A stretch of DNA of 64,000 nt, from sequence record LC788708.1. One strand, 5' to 3'. The first letter of the stretch is position 1. Each line of letters begins with the position of its first letter. A program made the translations under genes and the position numbers. Of the stretch, positions 11,415-37,859 are shown piece after piece. This stretch comes from Escherichia coli phage AZ21. A model generated the notes under the pieces. That model had not been told where the DNA came from. It saw nothing but the letters and a program-made list of their open reading frames with translations, and ran no database searches.

Positions 11415-11443
11415 TTGCTTAGCTACTTAAATTTCTGTATAAT
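11415..11443 (+). promoter_or_regulatory. sigma70 promoter (T5 early type)
   Basis: TTGCTT-17-TATAAT. Confidence 0.65.
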
Positions 11444-11474
11444 ACTTTCATAAATTAATGAGAGGAAGCGAAAT

Positions 11475-11645
11475 ATGAAATCAGTTGTAATTATTGGTGT
11501 TAACACTCGCGGTATTCGTACTACGAAAACTGTTAAAACTTCTAACGTTGCTGAAATCACTACGAACCCTAAAAAGTTTGATTTCGCCAAAGTCTCAGCA
11601 GTTATGACAGAACAATCTTTTAACCAAGCATTGGGGATGAAATAA
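11475..11645 (+). CDS. hypothetical small protein (56 aa, below ORF-track cutoff)
   Basis: Promoter plus RBS GAGAGGAAG then ATG; stop overlaps next start (ATAATG). Confidence 0.4.
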   Translation: MKSVVIIGVNTRGIRTTKTVKTSNVAEITTNPKKFDFAKVSAVMTEQSFNQALGMK

Positions 11646-12079
11646 TGGGTGAAAATATTCTAATGACCCTTCGTGGACTGCTTAGTCTAGCACGTACCCA
11701 CGGTGATAAGGAGAGGGCACTTAATCTTCAGACCATGATTGGTGATCTGCAACGTATTGATAAAGACATTGTTACTCGAACCGAGTTCGTAGCCTATCTG
11801 AAAGCTCAGATTAAGGCTCTAGAAAATGCAAAACAACGCGCTATTAAAGTTGGTACGGAAGTTCCTACTGATGTAGACTATGAGCAACTGCTTTATTCCA
11901 TGCTGCAAGAGTATCAGCCAAGTCAACTGACTGAAGTTCAGATTCGTGAGTATTTTGCAGAACTGGTTAAATTAAACCCAGGTATTACCAAAGCTCTATT
12001 AATGAAAACTATTAAGGCAGAATTTCCTGGACGTTATGACGGTAAAACAACTGCTTTGATTGCTAGTGAATTTTTCTAA
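11645..12079 (+). CDS. hypothetical protein
   Basis: 144 aa, coupled to upstream small ORF. Confidence 0.45.
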   Translation: MGENILMTLRGLLSLARTHGDKERALNLQTMIGDLQRIDKDIVTRTEFVAYLKAQIKALENAKQRAIKVGTEVPTDVDYEQLLYSMLQEYQPSQLTEVQIREYFAELVKLNPGITKALLMKTIKAEFPGRYDGKTTALIASEFF

Positions 12080-12087
12080 AAATTCAC

Positions 12088-12116
12088 TTGCTAAATGCTT
12101 ATAAATTCTATATAAT
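12088..12116 (+). promoter_or_regulatory. sigma70 promoter (T5 early type) ahead of tRNA cluster
   Basis: TTGCTA-17-TATAAT. Confidence 0.65.
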
Positions 12117-12193
12117 ATATTCATAAATTAGATGATAATTAGGCATCTAATTTATAAATAGTGGGGTGTGGAAATCACTTATGTAGTAACACT

Positions 12194-12265
12194 GCCGTCC
12201 TAGTATAATTGGTATTATCAAGCCGTAACTGGTGGAAGATGTAGGTTCGAATCCTACGGTCGGTA
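12194..12265 (+). tRNA. tRNA-like element, isotype undetermined
   Basis: Perfect T-arm GTAGG-TTCGAAT-CCTAC and D-loop GG, but acceptor and anticodon stems did not pair cleanly by eye. Confidence 0.35.
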
Positions 12266-12767
12266 AGAACTGGATAACTGATGCTTTTAACGTAAAAGCT
12301 TCCGAGGTTAGTTGCGCACTGCCTAAACCACGCGGTAGTTGGTTCCAGACTAACCAACCAGTCTGCTGAATAGTTTTATTACGATTTAACTATGTCCAGG
12401 CTAAAGAAGAACTTTAGAAGGTATTCTAGGATAGTGAAGTTCTTTCTCCACATCGGAGTAGTTTTTCAAGCTATCCACAAAGTGGGAAATGCTGACATGA
12501 GAGATGTCACTAATGGTGCACAATAGCACAGGTAATTCGCGATAATTCCTGTTGAGTAGCAGCAAAAGGCGGGAAGTCATGACCCCAAGCCTAACCGAGT
12601 CCTCAATATACCGCAGGGCATAACCACTAAGTCACCCTGACTTAAACTGGAAAATAATAGACGTTACTGTATTTTGTCTTGAAATACTTAATGAGTGAGA
12701 CTTATGACTCTCCCGGTATCGTCTGTATTTTTAAGAGTTTTTACGAGAGTTCTTAAAAATACTTAAA

Positions 12768-12842
12768 CGGGGTGTAGTCTAAGGGAGAGGCAGGAGTCTT
12801 CTAAATTCCTTTATGCAGGTTCGAATCCTGTCACCTCGGCCA
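12768..12842 (+). tRNA. tRNA-Arg (anticodon UCU), CCA encoded
   Basis: Acceptor CGGGGTG/CACCTCG, anticodon stem GGAGT/ATTCC with loop CTTCTAA, T-arm GCAGG-TTCGAAT-CCTGT. Confidence 0.65.
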
Positions 12843-12876
12843 ATTTTATTAACTGTAACTAAAACAAAGGAAACAT

Positions 12877-13824
12877 ATGTTTAATACTAAAAATATGAAA
12901 GAATTGACTTCTGAGCAGAAAGTAATTCGTACTATTAAACGTTGGGGTATTGGTGCTGTAGTTGGTTTAGCAGGTTTAATCCTAGCTTTTAATTCGTATA
13001 CCATTGTTTCTGATGGTACGGTTAAAACCCAAACATTCCTGGGTAAAGTAGACCCTAATCCAGTATTACCTGGTTTCCATCTTGTAAACCCGTTTGCATC
13101 TTTCGATACTTTTAGTACGAAAGATATTTCTATGAAACTGGATAAACTTCAGGTTCCTAGCCAGGATAAGTTTAAGTCTACAGTTGACATTACCGTTATG
13201 TTGCAGTTTGATGGTGCTAAAGCTCCTATTAACCGTGTTAACGCAGGTACTCAGGATCAAGCTCTGAACAAGTACGTTGAAGAGAAGATGCTGTCTACGA
13301 TTCGTGAGTTTGGTAAGTCTGTACCAAAAGCACAAGATCTGTTCGACGCTAAGATTCAGGCTCAACTGCAAACCGCTATTCAGCAAGAAGTAGAAGAGTA
13401 TGCGCGTCCTTATGGCTACACCGTTAAGCAAGTATTCCTTCAGGATATTACTCTGCCACCGGTAATCATGGAACAGGTACAAAACACCAAAGTTCGTGAA
13501 GAACAAGTTAACGCTGCAAAAGCTGAACTAGCTCGTGTTGAACAAGAAGCACAGCAGAAAGTTAAGCAAGCTGAGGCTGATCGTTCTGCTCGTGAAAATA
13601 TGGCAGTAGCTAACGAACGTGACGCAGATGCTAAACTGTATGCGGCTAAGAAAGAAGCTGAAGCTAACACCGCTCTGCAGCGTACCATCACTCCAGAGAT
13701 GATTCGCTGGAAACAGCTGGAAGTTGATATGAAACGCGCTGAAAAATATCAGGGTGGCGTTCCTCAGACTGTTGTAGGTACTGGTTATGATGGCCAGATG
13801 ATTATGGATATGCGTAATAAGTAA
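12877..13824 (+). CDS. SPFH/band-7 (prohibitin/HflKC-like) membrane protein
   Basis: N-terminal TM helix, SPFH-like core, long Ala/Glu/Gln-rich coiled-coil tail. Confidence 0.55.
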   Translation: MFNTKNMKELTSEQKVIRTIKRWGIGAVVGLAGLILAFNSYTIVSDGTVKTQTFLGKVDPNPVLPGFHLVNPFASFDTFSTKDISMKLDKLQVPSQDKFKSTVDITVMLQFDGAKAPINRVNAGTQDQALNKYVEEKMLSTIREFGKSVPKAQDLFDAKIQAQLQTAIQQEVEEYARPYGYTVKQVFLQDITLPPVIMEQVQNTKVREEQVNAAKAELARVEQEAQQKVKQAEADRSARENMAVANERDADAKLYAAKKEAEANTALQRTITPEMIRWKQLEVDMKRAEKYQGGVPQTVVGTGYDGQMIMDMRNK

Positions 13825-13848
13825 TAGTTACACGTAATCTTCGAAACA

Positions 13849-13882
13849 AGCCCGCGTTTCCTCCGAGAGCGCGGGCTTTTCT
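13849..13882 (+). terminator. rho-independent terminator
   Basis: AGCCCGCG...CGCGGGCT hairpin followed by TTTTCTG. Confidence 0.7.
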
Positions 13883-14027
13883 GTATTTAAGGCAAAAGAA
13901 AAGCCCATAAGTTATTCAACTAAGGTCTTTAGTACTTAATTCTTTAGAATCATATACTATTATTGCAGCAACAACGTGCTACCACTAAATGCCCTACGAT
14001 TTTCCTCTAAAAAGTTAAAAAATTCGA

Positions 14028-14056
14028 TTGCTTGAATGCTAAATTCTCTGTATAAT
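14028..14056 (+). promoter_or_regulatory. sigma70 promoter (T5 early type)
   Basis: TTGCTT-17-TATAAT then TTATAAATTTGAGAGAGG leader. Confidence 0.65.
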
Positions 14057-14086
14057 ATATTTATAAATTTGAGAGAGGAATCAAAT

Positions 14087-14383
14087 ATGAAACGCATTGT
14101 ACTTGCATTGACTCTAGTATCTACTTCTGTATTTGCTGCTCCACAACAGGAACTTTGTCAAGTTCAAGTTTGTAATAAGCTAGAACGATTTACTTTGGAT
14201 ATTTGGTCACACATTAAAGATAATATGGGTGAGCAATGTTTTGATATTGTTCTGCCAAAAGAACAAGCTGTTCCTGGTGCTGTTCTCAGCTCAGAATCAC
14301 GTTGGTGGCAAGGTTCTTCTATCAATCCAACTAAGAAGTCAGTGACACGTATCAAACAAGTGTATCAGTGCAGTGTTCAGTAA
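14087..14383 (+). CDS. small secreted Cys-containing protein
   Basis: Signal peptide MKRIVLALTLVSTSVFA; track ORF trimmed to RBS-supported ATG. Confidence 0.45.
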   Translation: MKRIVLALTLVSTSVFAAPQQELCQVQVCNKLERFTLDIWSHIKDNMGEQCFDIVLPKEQAVPGAVLSSESRWWQGSSINPTKKSVTRIKQVYQCSVQ

Positions 14384-14391
14384 AATTTCAC

Positions 14392-14420
14392 TTGCTTAAT
14401 GCCGAAATTTTCTATATAAT
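14392..14420 (+). promoter_or_regulatory. sigma70 promoter (T5 early type)
   Basis: TTGCTT-17-TATAAT. Confidence 0.65.
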
Positions 14421-14451
14421 ATATTCTATAAATTATAGATAGGAGTCATAT

Positions 14452-14970
14452 ATGACTGTTGACGAGTTAAAACAACATCTTTTATCTAGGGGCTTTGATA
14501 GTGATAAGTATCACTGTTGGCTCTCTCCACATGGATGGTTAACAGTTCCACTGTATGATTTCTCTGGCATGTTACGTGGATATCAAACATATAACCCTAG
14601 TGCAGCTAAAGGTCATGGAAAATGTCCTTCTGAAGCTAAATATTTTACGCATTCTTCTACTCAATGTCTATGGGGTTTAGAAACTCTTACAGGTAATGAA
14701 GACCTAGTATTAGTTGCAGAATCTGTATTTAAAGCTGTGGCACTACACAACGCGGGATATCCCGCACTAGCAATGCTAGGATCTTCCCCTAGCAAAGCAC
14801 TGCTAAAGCAGCTAAAATTACAACCTTTTAAAGTAGTAGCCGTAGGCGATAATGATTCTGCTGGTGAGAAGTTTGCTAAAAAACTAAATGGGTTTACTTC
14901 CCTCATGGATTTAGATGAAATGAATACAGAAAACTTGAAAAATTTTCTTGCCATGAAGCTAAATTTCTAA
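14452..14970 (+). CDS. Toprim-domain protein (primase-like fold)
   Basis: Toprim-like conserved Glu (LVLVAESVF) and DxD (VAVGDNDSAG). Confidence 0.4.
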   Translation: MTVDELKQHLLSRGFDSDKYHCWLSPHGWLTVPLYDFSGMLRGYQTYNPSAAKGHGKCPSEAKYFTHSSTQCLWGLETLTGNEDLVLVAESVFKAVALHNAGYPALAMLGSSPSKALLKQLKLQPFKVVAVGDNDSAGEKFAKKLNGFTSLMDLDEMNTENLKNFLAMKLNF

Positions 14971-14976
14971 TATAAT
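14948..14976 (+). promoter_or_regulatory. sigma70 promoter inside the 3' end of the preceding CDS, ahead of tRNA pair
   Basis: TTGCCA-17-TATAAT then CATAAATTTGG; tRNA starts about 15 nt downstream. Confidence 0.55.
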
Positions 14977-14990
14977 ATATTCATAAATTT

Positions 14991-15084
14991 GGAAGATTAA
15001 CCCTAAAGGTAAGGGAGCTGTTTGCTAAACAGCCAGTAGCTGTGGAGACACGGTGTGCCAGTTCGAATCTGGCATCTTCCTCCA
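14991..15084 (+). tRNA. tRNA-Ser (anticodon GCU), long variable arm, CCA encoded
   Basis: Acceptor GGAAGAT/ATCTTCC, anticodon stem GCTGT/ACAGC with loop TTGCTAA, T-arm GCCAG-TTCGAAT-CTGGC. Confidence 0.7.
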
Positions 15085-15089
15085 AATTT

Positions 15090-15167
15090 GGTTCTCAAGC
15101 TCATTTGGTATGAGCCGTCGCCTCATAAGCGAAAGGTAGGCAGGTTCGAATCCTCCGGGAGCCACCA
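15090..15167 (+). tRNA. tRNA with CAU anticodon (Met or Ile2), CCA encoded
   Basis: Acceptor GGTTCTC/GGGAGCC with G-U pairs, anticodon loop CTCATAA, T-loop TTCGAAT. Confidence 0.65.
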
Positions 15168-15186
15168 AATTAAATAAGGACAACTA

Positions 15187-15375
15187 ATGGAATTATTCAT
15201 AGTTTCTATTAAATTTGCACAAGATAGAGAACATTCGGACGAGTTTAAACAAGGGTACAGACTAGTAAAGGCTACATCTGAACTACATGCTATGGACAAA
15301 GTAGTAGACTATATGTATAAAGTAGAAGACGTTTACTACGTCAATGCTTTAGAAGCCTCAAAAGTAATTAACTAG
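15187..15375 (+). CDS. hypothetical protein
   Basis: RBS AAGGA then ATG. Confidence 0.3.
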   Translation: MELFIVSIKFAQDREHSDEFKQGYRLVKATSELHAMDKVVDYMYKVEDVYYVNALEASKVIN

Positions 15376-15383
15376 GAGACTAT

Positions 15384-15569
15384 ATGTCCAAATTTCAAGA
15401 ACTCAAGCAAGAGCTAGAAGAGTGTGCCTGCCCAAAATGCTTCGGAGTAGGTGAGTGGAACGATGCTGAACCCGGTGATACACGGTATAATACATACGTT
15501 TGTACATATTGTAATGGTTCTGGTATTAATCCTGAATGTGGTATTTCTCTAGACATTGAGCGAGGTTAA
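15384..15569 (+). CDS. small zinc-finger-like protein
   Basis: Two CxxCxGxG-like motifs (CPKCFGVG, CTYCNGSG). Confidence 0.4.
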   Translation: MSKFQELKQELEECACPKCFGVGEWNDAEPGDTRYNTYVCTYCNGSGINPECGISLDIERG

Positions 15570-15909
15570 GATGGATATTTTTACTACTCCGGCAATAAAC
15601 CTTTTAGGTGTTGGCTTGTTCCAAGCTACGGTGTATCGTACTGATGATTCTACTGATGTGGTAACGTTCATCGTACCTGAGTTCTTCCTAGAAAAGTTCT
15701 TTGAAGAGTTTGAGCAGTTCCGTGAAGAACACAATGCTCATTCCGATATGGAAGATCTAGCAGCTATGTTCCCTGCGGTTTACGGCTATATCTTTGAAGG
15801 TAATGGCCTAGATCTTAATAAATCTGAACTCGTTGAACTTAACTGGGGCATCAATTTTGAAGTTGGCTCTCCATTCCCTCGATATTTCCAGGGTTTAGAG
15901 ATTCGCTAA
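15556..15909 (+). CDS. hypothetical acidic protein
   Basis: Start overlaps upstream stop. Confidence 0.4.
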   Translation: MSEVKMDIFTTPAINLLGVGLFQATVYRTDDSTDVVTFIVPEFFLEKFFEEFEQFREEHNAHSDMEDLAAMFPAVYGYIFEGNGLDLNKSELVELNWGINFEVGSPFPRYFQGLEIR

Positions 15910-15917
15910 GATTACAT

Positions 15918-15994
15918 GGGGGTGTAATCGAATTGGCATAGGTACTGGACTTAAAATTCAGGTTTTGTGGGTTCGAATCCCACCACCCCTACCA
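15918..15994 (+). tRNA. tRNA, anticodon apparently UAA (isotype uncertain), CCA encoded
   Basis: Acceptor GGGGGTG/CACCCCT, anticodon stem CTGGA/TTCAG with loop CTTAAAA, T-arm GTGGG-TTCGAAT-CCCAC; short variable loop is atypical for Leu. Confidence 0.5.
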
Positions 15995-16145
15995 AATTAA
16001 GGAAATAAAATGAAAGCTATTAAGAAAGCACTGCGTAAATTTATGTATTGTCGTTTTCATAGCATCAAGGCTTCAACTAATGGTACTACTTACGATCGCT
16101 ATGATCCTAAGTTTGGCTTACATTCTAAATAACTGGAGAAAACAA

Positions 16146-16352
16146 ATGGCTAATCCTGAAATTACGGCACAACGCTTTATGCTGAAAGGAATTATTGCTG
16201 AAGCAGGCATGACAGAAGAAGTTGCAGATTTTCAAAAGCAATTCCTCAATATTCTCACTCAAGCCAAAGAGCTAGGAGAGAAAGAACATGGCGCGGCTAT
16301 TATGGCAATCACATTGGTTGGGCTTGATCTGGCTGAAGAATCAGGAGTTTAA
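16146..16352 (+). CDS. hypothetical protein
   Basis: RBS CTGGAG then ATG; track ORF trimmed. Confidence 0.35.
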   Translation: MANPEITAQRFMLKGIIAEAGMTEEVADFQKQFLNILTQAKELGEKEHGAAIMAITLVGLDLAEESGV

Positions 16353-16382
16353 CTCCTCCAAGCAGAAATTTTAAAAATGTAC

Positions 16383-16412
16383 TTGCTTTTTGCTTAAGAT
16401 TTCTGCTATAAT
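16383..16412 (+). promoter_or_regulatory. sigma70 promoter (T5 early type)
   Basis: TTGCTT-18-TATAAT then AAGTTGATGAGAGG leader. Confidence 0.6.
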
Positions 16413-16441
16413 AGTTATATAAGTTGATGAGAGGAATCAGA

Positions 16442-16717
16442 ATGTTAAAACGTTTTGCAGCAACTGGTATTGAAAGCTCAGTATGTAAATCCTGGGGTGG
16501 TTGGGAAGGTGAGATCGAGTGGCTTCAGTTCTACAATGTAGAACTTCTTCCAGAGATCAAAGCTCAATGTATTGAGGCTGGTATGGCTCCTGATGCTACG
16601 GCTGATGTTGAAATCAGCATGAATAAGCTAGAGGGTCGAGTAGTCACTGTTACTGATGAAGGTGAAGAGGTATTCGAACTTCCATTCACTTTGAAAGTCA
16701 CTCCTTCATTTGATTAA
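16442..16717 (+). CDS. hypothetical protein
   Basis: RBS GAGAGGAATC then ATG. Confidence 0.4.
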   Translation: MLKRFAATGIESSVCKSWGGWEGEIEWLQFYNVELLPEIKAQCIEAGMAPDATADVEISMNKLEGRVVTVTDEGEEVFELPFTLKVTPSFD

Positions 16718-16753
16718 CTGATACAGCACTGAGCAAGTTCTTTAAAATTTGAC

Positions 16754-16782
16754 TTGCTCAGTGCCTTAAAACTTGATATAAT
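16754..16782 (+). promoter_or_regulatory. sigma70 promoter ahead of tRNA-Tyr
   Basis: TTGCTC-17-TATAAT. Confidence 0.6.
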
Positions 16783-16847
16783 ATTTATCTAATTTGGAAA
16801 CATATTTAAAAGTGTTTAAATGAGAATTTTTGAATACTTCTAAATAT

Positions 16848-16935
16848 GGGCGTTTATTCCGTAAGTGGTAGCGGAGGGGATTGTAAATCCCTGGTCATTG
16901 CGACTCGAGTGGTTCGACTCCATTAACGCCCACCA
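16848..16935 (+). tRNA. tRNA-Tyr (anticodon GUA), long variable arm, CCA encoded
   Basis: Acceptor GGGCGTT/AACGCCC, anticodon stem GGGGA/TCCCT with loop TTGTAAA, T-loop TTCGACT. Confidence 0.7.
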
Positions 16936-16952
16936 AATTAAAGGTAAAGGAT

Positions 16953-17144
16953 ATGTATATTGATCGGATAATTCAAGAAGCTGCAAATAGGGGTATTATA
17001 CAGTTGGGTTCACCCGCTGATATAAATAAAGATCTAATATTAGAAAGCCTCACATTTGGTACAGCTAACTTTGGTCGCGATAGTAATCGTCGATATAGCT
17101 TGAAGTTATCTGCACTATCTTTTATCAAGTATAACAAATTATAG
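16953..17144 (+). CDS. hypothetical protein
   Basis: 63 aa between two tRNAs; weak support. Confidence 0.25.
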   Translation: MYIDRIIQEAANRGIIQLGSPADINKDLILESLTFGTANFGRDSNRRYSLKLSALSFIKYNKL

Positions 17145-17218
17145 TTAGTTGGCAGAGTGGTTATGCACCTCCTTCATACGGAGCGACTACAGTGGTTCAA
17201 CTCCACTACTAACTACCA
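17143..17218 (+). tRNA. tRNA with CAU anticodon (Met or Ile2), CCA encoded
   Basis: Acceptor AGTTAGT/ACTAACT, anticodon loop TTCATAC, T-arm AGTGG-TTCAACT-CCACT. Confidence 0.6.
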
Positions 17219-17401
17219 AAGATAAGATCAGGCCTTTGTGCCAGATCTCTGTGTTTATTAAACTGAATGGGACTATCAATCCACAAGCCGGACTACGAGC
17301 GATTATCGGGTATTCACTTAATAAACAGCCTGCCTCCCAGTTTTTATCTTGCTTCTGGGTTAACAAAAAGCTGAGCCAAATTCTAACATCAGGGAGATCT
17401 A

Positions 17402-17770
17402 ATGAAAGCATATCAAAGTCTTAAGTCTGGCGTAATTAACCTTGTTCATGATAACCAGATCATTCAGCTATATTCTAAAGATGGTGAACTTAAACAAAAG
17501 GTTCTAGTTGAAGATCTAGAGGGTATCACACCTCATTTTGACCCTGAGGCCTTCCGCATTGTAGATGTAGAAGTGGTTCCTCAAGTCGAGGGTGGTCAGC
17601 ACCTAAATGTCAATGTGTTAAGCCGTGATCAGCTTTTGGATGCACAGAAACATCCTGAAAAATATCCTCAGTTGACCATCCGTGTCTCTGGCTATGCTGT
17701 TCGATTTAACGCATTGACGCGTGAACAACAGAACGACGTTATTAGTCGTACATTTACTCAGGCGATATAA
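17402..17770 (+). CDS. grcA: GrcA/YfiD-like autonomous glycyl-radical cofactor protein
   Basis: C-terminus [12 protein letters not shown]...[40 protein letters not shown] is near-identical to the PFL/GrcA glycyl-radical domain (RVSGYAVRF radical motif); RBS GGGAG. Confidence 0.8.
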
Positions 17771-17851
17771 TGGGGTTTGGATACGATTTCTCCCAACTAC
17801 GCAAGGTAGTCGAGCAAACTCCATTTATCTCCCAAGTTTTAGGAGAAATGT

Positions 17852-18151
17852 GTGGATCGAGCATTAAGACGCCATCACCGGCAACGTGTGAAAAACAATC
17901 GCAAGAAGTATTGGACAGTCTTCCCACATGAAGAAAGCCCTAAGAGGTTAGGCATTATCACTACCACTCCTTGCATCTGTTCTTGTTGGATGTGTGGGAA
18001 TCCTCGCAAATACTATAAGAATAGTAAAGCAGGCATGAAAATTTCGGAGATTAAAAAGATGGATGCAATGATTATGGGCATCACCTTTACAGGTGGTATC
18101 TCTGATGAATTCGACGGTTTTGTAACTCAGGATATTGTCGAAATTATCTAA
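17852..18151 (+). CDS. hypothetical Arg-rich, Cys-cluster protein (GTG start)
   Basis: RBS AGGAG 6 nt before GTG; CICSCWMCG cluster. Confidence 0.35.
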   Translation: MDRALRRHHRQRVKNNRKKYWTVFPHEESPKRLGIITTTPCICSCWMCGNPRKYYKNSKAGMKISEIKKMDAMIMGITFTGGISDEFDGFVTQDIVEII

Positions 18152-18161
18152 TTAATAATAA

Positions 18162-18196
18162 ACCCCAGCTATTGAATACGTAGTCTGGGGTTTTCT
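18162..18196 (+). terminator. rho-independent terminator
   Basis: CCCCAG...CTGGGG hairpin then TTTTCTTG. Confidence 0.65.
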
Positions 18197-18215
18197 TGTA
18201 TATAGGATTTTCGAA

Positions 18216-18401
18216 ATGAAAATTTTTAAAGTGAACTATAGCGGCCTGTGGTTAGGTGGTACAGCTATTGTTGTTGCGGAAACTGCGGAAGAAGCAATCG
18301 AACTGGCTAGAAATCATAGAAGTTCTATAGAATTCGAGAATGTGACAGCAGAAGAACTCCCTAGCAGTGGGGTAGTATACAACGATAACGGAGACTACTA
18401 A
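18216..18401 (+). CDS. hypothetical protein
   Basis: 61 aa. Confidence 0.3.
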   Translation: MKIFKVNYSGLWLGGTAIVVAETAEEAIELARNHRSSIEFENVTAEELPSSGVVYNDNGDY

Positions 18402-18460
18402 ATGTTATATTTTGAAGTTAGACCACATTAAGTTACTTTAACAGACTTAATGGAGGTATT

Positions 18461-18814
18461 ATGAGCCGTACATATCGTAAACAATCGGGGAATCGTCACT
18501 GGCGTGATGCACATCGTTCTAAATTCAACTTTACTCTTGGGTACAATCGTCGTTTCTTTGCTTTGAAGGAGCCAGCAGTCCCGTATACTAGAGAAGAAGT
18601 TGAAAAGGAATTACAAGACGATATCATTAAATATGAGAAGAAGGATGGTTATAACTGGAATTCCATTAGTAAGAATGTTAAGTGGCACTCTAATAAAATG
18701 GTTCGTCAAGGGAATCGTCAAGAACTTCACCGCGTGATGAAAGATCCAGAAAATTACGACTATAATCGCGATCATGACATGCGTAAGCGTGGGTTATGGT
18801 GGTGCTATGACTAA
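18461..18814 (+). CDS. hypothetical basic protein
   Basis: RBS GGAGG then ATG. Confidence 0.4.
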   Translation: MSRTYRKQSGNRHWRDAHRSKFNFTLGYNRRFFALKEPAVPYTREEVEKELQDDIIKYEKKDGYNWNSISKNVKWHSNKMVRQGNRQELHRVMKDPENYDYNRDHDMRKRGLWWCYD

Positions 18815-37027: not shown

Positions 37028-37258
37028 TTACATTAAAATAATTTTTGCCGCTTGTTTTTTGGTACAGTGTTCCGCTTTCAGGGTGTCCAGCAAAAAGCCC
37101 GCCGTTTGCTGATCGATTTTATCGGCATTATATAGTTCTTGGATGGTGTTATAAGTTTTAGCAATGCCGTATTCTTGTACCATTTCTTGAATAATCCAGC
37201 GATTTGATACCCAGCCTTTACCAGTGAAAAGAGCGTCAGAAGAAGAGTAAGCAACCAT
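37028..37258 (-). CDS. hypothetical pre-early protein
   Basis: RBS GGAGG then ATG on minus strand; track ORF trimmed. Confidence 0.4.
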   Translation of the reverse strand: MVAYSSSDALFTGKGWVSNRWIIQEMVQEYGIAKTYNTIQELYNADKIDQQTAGFLLDTLKAEHCTKKQAAKIILM

Positions 37259-37364
37259 TTTAAGCCTCCAAATTTTTGGGAAAATTTTCAACCGTCCTCA
37301 AACGGTGTAAAGGCATTATAACAAAAAAGGCCGCCATAAAAGGCGACCTTTACAAAACTTTACA

Positions 37365-37859
37365 TTAAACTACTTGTAAGGATTCAATATTGAAACATCG
37401 TTTCAGTTCGTCATGCAAAACGGCATATTCATCCCATCGGGTACTATCAGGAATATAAACAAGCTGTTTTAATCGGTTTGCATATATTACCGCTTTGTTA
37501 TCAATTATCTCGACGCCACCATATTTAATAATTAATTTCATGACGGAATTAATAGGATCGCCGCCGTTTACATATGCGCCGGATTTACTTAATTGATAAT
37601 GATAAAGGCTTGCATATACGTTTTCATTTTCATACCATTCGCCAGTCTCTTCGTCTTCATAGCCATCGCTACCAAAACGAGAAGCATTATCAACAGCCAT
37701 TTCATGAGCAAAAGCGTCCAGATCCGTACCAGCAGGAACAAAATATTCCTCGGTATTCCCTTCCCCGCAATAGCCAGTATGACAATCGACTAAAATGATC
37801 ATATCATGTTTAGCCTTGCTCACTTCCCCTAGCGAGAAGCCGTATTTTTCTTCTAACAT
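37365..37859 (-). CDS. hypothetical pre-early acidic protein
   Basis: RBS AGGAGA then ATG on minus strand; 164 aa. Confidence 0.45.
   Translation of the reverse strand: MLEEKYGFSLGEVSKAKHDMIILVDCHTGYCGEGNTEEYFVPAGTDLDAFAHEMAVDNASRFGSDGYEDEETGEWYENENVYASLYHYQLSKSGAYVNGGDPINSVMKLIIKYGGVEIIDNKAVIYANRLKQLVYIPDSTRWDEYAVLHDELKRCFNIESLQVV

Follow-up and report, generated by a model that had tools for sequence, protein, structure and literature searches.

In a window of 64,000 nucleotides from the T5-like Escherichia coli phage AZ21 (LC788708.1; all coordinates are window positions unless another record or locus is named), the open reading frame (ORF) at 14452-14970 is, as judged by its sequence, the orthologue of the retron inhibitor Rad and a dispensable early accessory gene of T5-like phages. 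Our joint best explanation, which we consider probable, is that this ORF is a Rad orthologue whose product is a minimal DnaG core disarming retrons by way of their msr-msd RNA or msDNA (multicopy single-stranded DNA), and that its 3' end doubles as an early promoter. The anti-retron role has already been published, and the feature, which is T5.076/Rad together with promoter P15b, is already known. Few inhibitors of retrons are known besides Rad, and what is still of interest is its mechanism.

The AZ21 protein shares 86% identity over 172 amino acids with ORF75 of PhiSP15 (E0157_075), which is found in the same gene order of promoter, rad, tRNA-Ser, and tRNA-CAU; the 189 amino acids quoted for SP15 ORF75 arise from a start codon inside the promoter spacer (positions 11440-11510 of our comparison locus L007). 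Azam et al. named ORF75 Rad, for retron anti-defense, and reported that it rescues phages from the retrons Ec67, Ec78, Ec83, Ec48, and Se72, that it lowers msDNA and msr-msd RNA and leaves the mRNA of reverse transcriptase (RT) and effector unaffected, that the substitutions R13E, P33T, I88T, D135H, and E156H weaken it, and that Rad homologues from other phages are active too (bioRxiv 10.1101/2023.03.15.532788). The mutated residues are found in AZ21 Rad as R13, P33, D135, and E156, with a conservative V88 for I88, and their numbering fits the 172-residue protein. Rescue from Eco2 and Eco7 was confirmed in the peer-reviewed version of 2024 (PMC11555353), and the CRISPRi-ART study re-annotated T5.076 as 'subverts retron-mediated defense' (PMC11879866). 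Researchers working on BF23 have also noted that the TOPRIM 'primase' of T5 has since been established as Rad and that the gene is lost from BF23; this phage, T5n, and SP15m are all viable and all have a deletion of it. In the CRISPRi-ART screen of T5, knock-down of T5.076 was scored 'Semi-Fit' and that of its neighbours 'Not Fit' (PMC11879866 supplement); if the screening host was retron-free, this score could be due to a polar effect on the downstream tRNAs or to a role beyond retrons.

The features of the locus are the following:

14392-14420, plus strand: upstream early-type promoter, counterpart of T5 P15a (-35 TTGCTT at 14392-14397, 17-base spacer, -10 TATAAT at 14415-14420)

14452-14970, plus strand: rad ORF, 172 amino acids, from ATG at 14452 to TAA at 14968-14970; orthologue of T5.076 and PhiSP15 ORF75

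14704-14922, plus strand: Toprim half of Rad, residues 85-157 (E90, K94, D133, D135, D153, D155, E156), from the Pfam stretch 85-146, the DnaG residue map, and family conservation

14937-14989, plus strand: internal early-type promoter, counterpart of T5 P15b (A-tract 14937-14942, -35 TTGCCA 14948-14953, -10 TATAAT 14971-14976, downstream box ATATTCATAAATT 14977-14989)

14991-15084, plus strand: tRNA-Ser(GCU), found by ARAGORN and syntenic with T5 tRNA-Ser3(GCU)

15090-15167, plus strand: tRNA with anticodon CAU, called 'Met' by ARAGORN; the T5 orthologue is annotated tRNA-Ile2(CAU)

A previous sequence-only reading of this DNA had proposed a 172-residue ORF at 14452 and a promoter just upstream of a tRNA-Ser/tRNA-CAU pair. 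The ORF is confirmed together with its ribosome-binding site, AGGAG at 14441-14445, and the layout recurs in the T5 reference record NC_005859, where T5.076 (519 bp, 37279-37797) is annotated as 'DNA primase' and matched to a Toprim InterPro entry, P15a lies upstream of it, P15b (37247-37321) overlaps its 3' end, and tRNA-Ser3(GCU) and tRNA-Ile2(CAU) follow. Everything in this layout, from the ORF with its Toprim domain to the overlapping promoter and the tRNAs behind it, is thus a rediscovery, being already present in the T5 reference annotation. The upstream promoter of AZ21 was read off the sequence and aligned with the other early-type promoters of the window, and P15a is annotated directly 5' of T5.076. 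By megablast, the region 14000-15400 is 99.6-99.9% identical in DNA to Escherichia phage AZ23, to Salmonella phage oselot, and to numerous further genomes of Epseptimavirus and Tequintavirus. The CAU tRNA shares 66 of 78 bases with T5 tRNA-Ile2(CAU) and shows paired changes in the anticodon stem, for which reasons it is probably a lysidine-dependent Ile tRNA rather than a Met tRNA.

On the evidence of the predicted model, the whole Rad protein is a minimal DnaG-type primase core, made of an N-terminal subdomain and a Toprim domain, and is more than a bare Toprim domain. The Toprim-like Glu and DxD that had been recognized from the letters alone are borne out by Pfam, since both Toprim_2 (31.4 bits, cut-off 22.1, E 2.6e-7) and Toprim (25.0 bits, cut-off 23.1) score above threshold, the signature Glu being E90 and the DxD being D133-N-D135. 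No other Pfam domain matched the ORF, and zinc-ribbon, DnaB-binding, and helicase domains were not found by the profile search, which agrees with the earlier statement that a primase zinc-binding or helicase part is absent. PHROG 849 ('DNA primase') matches the ORF with an E value of 1.1e-56 over profile positions 146-337 of 435, and the AlphaFold2 (AF2) model of the protein is compact and confident. The first 80 residues are part of the DnaG catalytic core, and the protein has the fold of a DnaG-type RNA polymerase domain; its start corresponds to about residue 135 of E. coli DnaG and its C-terminus lies 17 residues past the last Toprim motif. Rad gave no match to Zn_ribbon_DnaG (CHC2), the T5 primase pri having a zinc ribbon, and the protein also contains neither a helicase-binding domain nor the C-terminal helical subdomain. 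The residues of E. coli DnaG map onto Rad as follows:

DnaG R146: Rad R13

DnaG G217: Rad G43

DnaG R221: Rad Y47

DnaG K229-Y230: Rad K63-Y64

DnaG N232: Rad T66

DnaG E265: Rad E90

DnaG D269: Rad K94

DnaG D309/D311: Rad D133/D135

DnaG D345/D347: Rad D153/D155

Five of the six acidic metal ligands of DnaG (E265, D269, D309, D311, D345, D347) are therefore present in Rad, D269 being replaced by K94. Researchers have found that R146, R221, K229, and N232 (146, 222, 230, and 233 in S. aureus) contact the nucleoside triphosphate (NTP) in complexes of S. aureus DnaG (PMC5429622); two of these four contacts are retained in Rad (R13 and K63), R221 being replaced by Y47 and N232 by T66. The template-tracking site of DnaG, W165/R199/R201, is absent, a segment of about 45 residues having been deleted or substituted in the alignment, with S25 and H27 at the positions of R199 and R201 and W165 unmatched. 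A sequence search of the PDB returned no solved Rad structure, the best match being DnaG with an E value of 0.8, and against TIGR00646, which describes MG010-type primase-like proteins, the ORF reached 25.1 bits, below the NCBIfam cut-off of 260.65. Rad also does not have the build of an RNase M5-type Toprim ribonuclease, in which a Toprim-only catalytic domain is joined to an RNase M5 C-terminal domain.

When 1.84 billion representative proteins were searched with a profile, 905 relatives were detected, and the 154 homologues that were retrieved are the best 150 of these 905 together with the first close hits. Among them, 131 are stand-alone proteins of 150-215 amino acids, and a stand-alone protein of about 175 amino acids is the prevailing form among the detected relatives. 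That Rad is a truncated remnant of a longer primase, as the partial PHROG 849 alignment had hinted, is ruled out by this count and by the compact and confident AF2 model. The longer relatives are fusions, and their partners include parts of CCA-adding enzymes (proteins P0082 and P0091), a DUF3268 zinc finger, Mom, HAD, ParB_N, Arr alone or together with GNAT, and a cytidylyltransferase. Conservation was read from an alignment of 132 sequences, namely the 131 stand-alone homologues and the AZ21 ORF, in which R13 is kept in 97%, K/R63 and Y64 in 100%, E90 in 99%, D133 in 88%, D135 in 93%, and D153 in 90%, with G43, Y47, and G75 also in the range of 88-100%. Position 94 is Asp or Glu in 73 of these sequences and Lys or Arg in 53, and its identity is tied to that of position 155: D/E94 is paired with G155 in 53 of the 73, and K/R94 with D155 in 51 of the 53. 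From this pattern the acidic site of the family looks to have been preserved in two covarying layouts, resembling a charge swap at the metal site equivalent to D269/D347 of DnaG. The Rad of T5-like phages has the K94/D155 form, and both forms occur fused to CCA-adding enzyme parts. The idea that Lys94 marks accessory copies and Asp94 replicative ones was ruled out, because the helicase-adjacent copy of Kagunavirus is of the K type and both types are found in fusions with CCA-adding enzymes.

Rad is not a replicative primase; that of T5 is T5.121 (pri), which contains a zinc ribbon, DNAG_N, and Toprim and lies two genes downstream of the DnaB-like gene D6, with an HNH endonuclease gene between. 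A recent paralogy of Rad and T5.121 was ruled out as well, as BLASTP aligns only the DxD motif (E 0.022). We collected 160 IMG/VR loci with Rad homologues by a search with two sub-alignments, and no DnaB-, DnaG-, or gp4-like neighbours turned up in them when they were scanned by phmmer; the queries were D6, pri, pol, D10, and D2 of T5, gp4 of T7, and E. coli DnaG. Only nine Kagunavirus-like loci have an SNF2 helicase and PolA near the gene; the common neighbours in the 160 loci are GIY-YIG, Dam methylase, Asn-synthase-like, and NAMPT genes. No DnaB-like gene adjoins rad in AZ21, and in Kagunavirus JSSK01 the K-type homologue follows an SNF2 helicase, and this phage has a separately annotated 740-residue 'replicative helicase/primase' as well. 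It could still be argued that Rad serves the phage as a second, functional DNA primase and supplies RNA primers for replication or for initiation at specific origins, as many records carry the label DNA primase, the fold is that of a DnaG core, some relatives have an N-terminal zinc finger (P0059, DUF3268), and the Kagunavirus copy, after its SNF2 helicase, is near a DNA polymerase. We regard this as very improbable, because Rad has no zinc-binding domain and no helicase-binding part, its template-tracking segment is deleted, T5 and Kagunavirus have full primases of their own, the gene is dispensable, and its usual neighbours are accessory rather than replication genes. The label 'DNA primase' on phage Toprim proteins of about 170 amino acids should therefore not be taken as evidence of a function in replication.

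As to the mechanism, Rad is a DnaG core stripped of its zinc-binding domain, of the template-tracking and C-terminal helical parts, and of any region that binds a helicase, and most probably its primase-derived nucleic-acid groove and Toprim metal site would target the msr-msd RNA or msDNA of the retron itself, presumably through cleavage catalysed by the Toprim site, so that the retron would never become a functional sensor-effector complex. We rank action on the RNA or DNA component of the retron first because of the data on non-coding RNA (ncRNA) and msDNA in the preprint and because of the conserved acidic cluster; a non-catalytic binder comes second, an activity at the level of tRNAs third, and the second primase, which is unlikely, last. 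Several points weigh against the explanation that we place first. DnaG-type cores are not known to have nuclease activity, and the equivalent of DnaG D269 is Lys in the T5-like Rad clade. Degradation of the ncRNA is claimed only in the preprint, and the peer-reviewed version says that the mechanism could not be determined (PMC11555353). The single substitutions D135H and E156H weaken Rad only slightly (bioRxiv 10.1101/2023.03.15.532788), which would be unexpected if Toprim catalysis were essential. Later work has shown that degradation of msDNA activates the retrons Eco2 and type I-A (for type I-A, PMC12475279); a simple account in which Rad degrades the msDNA precursor is therefore incomplete, and a lowering of msDNA would not obviously protect the phage unless the complex never assembles. 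For the promoter part of the explanation, the literature searched held no transcription-start data on the rad-internal promoter or the T5 tRNA region, and no later mechanistic paper on Rad was found there.

The weak effect of the single mutants would be easier to understand if Rad were a non-catalytic binder or decoy, with a template groove that sequesters the retron ncRNA, the msDNA, or the RT so that the retron cannot mature or be triggered, and with the drop in ncRNA and msDNA being secondary and caused by host nucleases. In the preprint (bioRxiv 10.1101/2023.03.15.532788), D135H and E156H alone are mild and double mutants at any pair of sites are inactive, which looks more like a loss of folding or binding than like that of a catalytic residue, and the conserved surface residues R13, K/R63, Y64, and Y47, which are basic or aromatic, could suffice for binding. 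However, E90, D133, D135, and D153 are 88-99% conserved across clusters of at most 50% identity, which is unusual for a pure binder, the covariation of D94/G155 with K94/D155 keeps the acidic site, and the His substitutions may retain some metal binding. On balance, we think that a pure binder is rather unlikely, and we continue to prefer direct action of the Toprim core on the retron RNA or msDNA.

The genomic surroundings of the family raise another possibility. A tRNA lies within 8 kb of the Rad homologue in 37 of the 160 IMG/VR loci and within 2 kb in 22, many of them less than 250 bases away, and these tRNA-adjacent loci belong to 8 of the 25 clusters formed at 60% identity; in the Salmonella phage Arash (180 kb), the Rad copy is located inside a tRNA cluster. 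The Rad-like domain is also fused to parts of tRNA nucleotidyltransferases, and in both orders: P0082 (L011, 4038-5786) is a CCA-adding enzyme with a C-terminal Rad domain, and in P0091 (L012, 5374-6447) the Rad domain is fused to a PolyA_pol head, the next gene carrying HD and tRNA_NucTran2 domains. In Vibrio phage F102, the Rad homologue and an annotated tRNA nucleotidyltransferase gene overlap at the end of the latter, and Vibrio phage helene 12B3 shows the same layout with an unannotated ORF of 447 amino acids as the neighbour (L005, 2703-4537, and L018, 2116-3929). A general link to CCA-adding enzymes is unsupported, such an enzyme being detected within 8 kb in 2 of the 160 loci with a three-sequence hidden Markov model of limited reach. 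Clusters of tRNA genes are general depots and hot spots of accessory phage genes, and for this reason the association of Rad with tRNAs is suggestive only.

These observations allow the reading that the Rad family acts on tRNAs and not on the retron, as a nuclease that trims damaged acceptor stems or as an NTP-using polymerase that refills them together with a CCA-adding enzyme, thereby cancelling the damage done by retron effectors. The fusions P0082 and P0091, the overlap in F102, the position inside tRNA clusters in T5-like phages and Arash, the tRNAs at no more than 2 kb in 22 of the 160 loci, and the two retained NTP contacts (R146 as R13 and K229 as K/R63) would all fit. So would the endpoint of the two retrons for which rescue has been peer-reviewed, which is tRNA cleavage in both; Eco2 nicks tRNA acceptor stems upstream of the CCA end, at a distance of 6-7 nucleotides, and Eco7 cuts tRNA-Tyr (PMC11555353). 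However, the preprint reports lower ncRNA and msDNA and also rescue from two retrons, Ec48 and Se72, for whose effectors no cutting of tRNA is known, a CCA-adding enzyme is near the gene in only the two loci mentioned, tRNA clusters attract accessory genes in general, and the equivalents of R221 and N232 are replaced. We therefore hold a role at the tRNA level to be improbable, and we are a little more doubtful still about its specific form, in which Rad, as a mini-DnaG, would work with the CCA-adding enzyme to rebuild acceptor stems nicked by, for example, the Eco2 Toprim, acting either as an RNA polymerase that depends on a template or as a nuclease that trims. If tRNA repair were true, it would account for the fusions with CCA-adding enzymes, for the placement in tRNA clusters in several phage lineages, and for the retention of a polymerase-type core over a bare Toprim domain. 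Separately, the tRNA downstream of the rad-internal promoter is a tRNA-Ser(GCU), and the HNH effector of a type I-A retron depletes host tRNA-Ser (PMC12475279); the phage tRNA would be a candidate for one that cancels such a defence. Action on the retron RNA or msDNA remains the explanation that we favour, and the results narrow down the useful experiments in that Rad is a complete minimal DnaG core with two covarying forms of the acidic site, is not the replicative primase, and recurs near tRNAs and CCA-adding enzymes.

The last 12 codons of rad would double as a sigma-70 T5 early promoter equivalent to P15b, whose firing is predicted from its elements. TTGCCA (14948-14953), a spacer of 17 bases, and TATAAT (14971-14976) agree with 11 of the 12 consensus positions, which is the top score in 12000-18500. 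The A-tract, the -35, and the spacer fall in the last 12 codons (L-K-N-F-L-A-M-K-L-N-F-stop), and the -10 hexamer is outside the ORF, beginning one base past the stop codon, with tRNA-Ser(GCU) 15 bases further. The sequence-only reading had placed the complete promoter within the last 25 codons; the elements are there, but the -10 has to be moved out of the gene. Its assignment to the early type stands, as all elements of a T5 early promoter are present and the site is homologous to the annotated P15b. Generic sigma-70-like sites show no enrichment in 12000-18500 (15 found against 17.8 expected). The extended T5 motif TATAATANATTCATAAATT has 14 matches in the window against 0.44 expected, and its copy at 14971-14989 is an exact 19-mer match; when aligned, the early-type promoters of the window share an A-tract near -43, a TTGCTx -35, the 17-base spacer, TATAAT, and ATATTCATAAATT. 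The rad genes of AZ21 and T5 are 78% identical in DNA, and their third codon positions are 56% identical in codons 1-159 and 93% identical (13/14) in the last 14 codons; this difference points to selection on the DNA itself under the promoter. On the model of the T5 promoter PN25, transcription would probably begin near 14983, 8 bases 5' of tRNA-Ser(GCU). Transcripts of the tRNA-Ser/tRNA-Ile2(CAU) pair and of the later genes would come from two sources, read-through that starts at the rad promoter and initiation that does not depend on it. Such an overlap of a promoter with a gene end is ordinary in T5-like phages, because other T5 promoters overlap gene ends likewise.

The neighbourhood of rad was also inspected, and the whole stretch with rad, tRNA-Tyr, and ORFs of the F7 type is an 'anti-defence island' of T5-like phages. 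The tRNA-Tyr at 16848-16935 is the positional counterpart of the T5/SP15 tRNA-Tyr, which cancels the PtuAB effector of retron Eco7 (PMC11555353). Just 5' of it, the small ORFs 16080-16352 and 16424-16717 are syntenic with the SP15 F7 ORFs, which are said to neutralise retron Ec83 and are given as ORF71/72 in the text of the preprint and as ORF72/73 in a figure legend (bioRxiv 10.1101/2023.03.15.532788). Upstream of rad, the ORF listed at 14036-14383 begins at an ATG that falls between the -35 and the -10 (14051-14056) of an early promoter, within the stretch 14022-14090, and its true start is likely the ATG at 14087, which gives a signal-peptide-like MKRIV...; a start codon in the promoter spacer is the same trap as that met in SP15 ORF75 (189 against 172 amino acids). 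The megablast matches to the closest phages all start at 14041/14042, inside this promoter spacer, and the upstream neighbours in oselot are NadR-like and PnuC genes that are absent in AZ21; 14041-14042 appears to be a mosaic junction that falls on a conserved promoter. Downstream, 15384-15569 is an ORF of 61 amino acids with two CxxCxGxG motifs of the DnaJ-type zinc finger, whose relatives are inconsistently labelled 'antitermination protein Q-like' or 'chaperone protein'.

Compared with known systems, AZ21 Rad shows no substantive difference from the Rad of PhiSP15 ORF75 and T5.076 (ORF071 in AY587007), which has the same length of 172 amino acids from the true start and occupies the same slot between P15a and tRNA-Ser/tRNA-Ile2. 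The T5 early promoters (PN25, and P15b in NC_005859) have the same architecture as the rad-internal site, including ATATTCATAAATT, and this site is at the position of P15b; its -35 is TTGCCA, whereas that of T5 and SP15 is TTGCTA. Unlike the DnaG-type primases (E. coli and Aquifex DnaG, the primase half of T7 gp4, and T4 gp61), Rad is devoid of the CHC2 zinc ribbon, the template-tracking segment, the C-terminal helical subdomain, and the helicase-binding domain, and has Tyr for R221, Thr for N232, and Lys for D269. In metazoan mitochondria, the N-terminal primase-like domain of Twinkle is joined to an SF4 helicase, and catalytic residues have been lost from it, whereas Rad is free-standing and has retained the acidic cluster of the Toprim domain. 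RNase M5 and small stand-alone Toprim proteins (6tg6, 2i5r) are, like Rad, small proteins with a metal site of E and DxD, and since they act on RNA, they provide a precedent for a Toprim ribonuclease.

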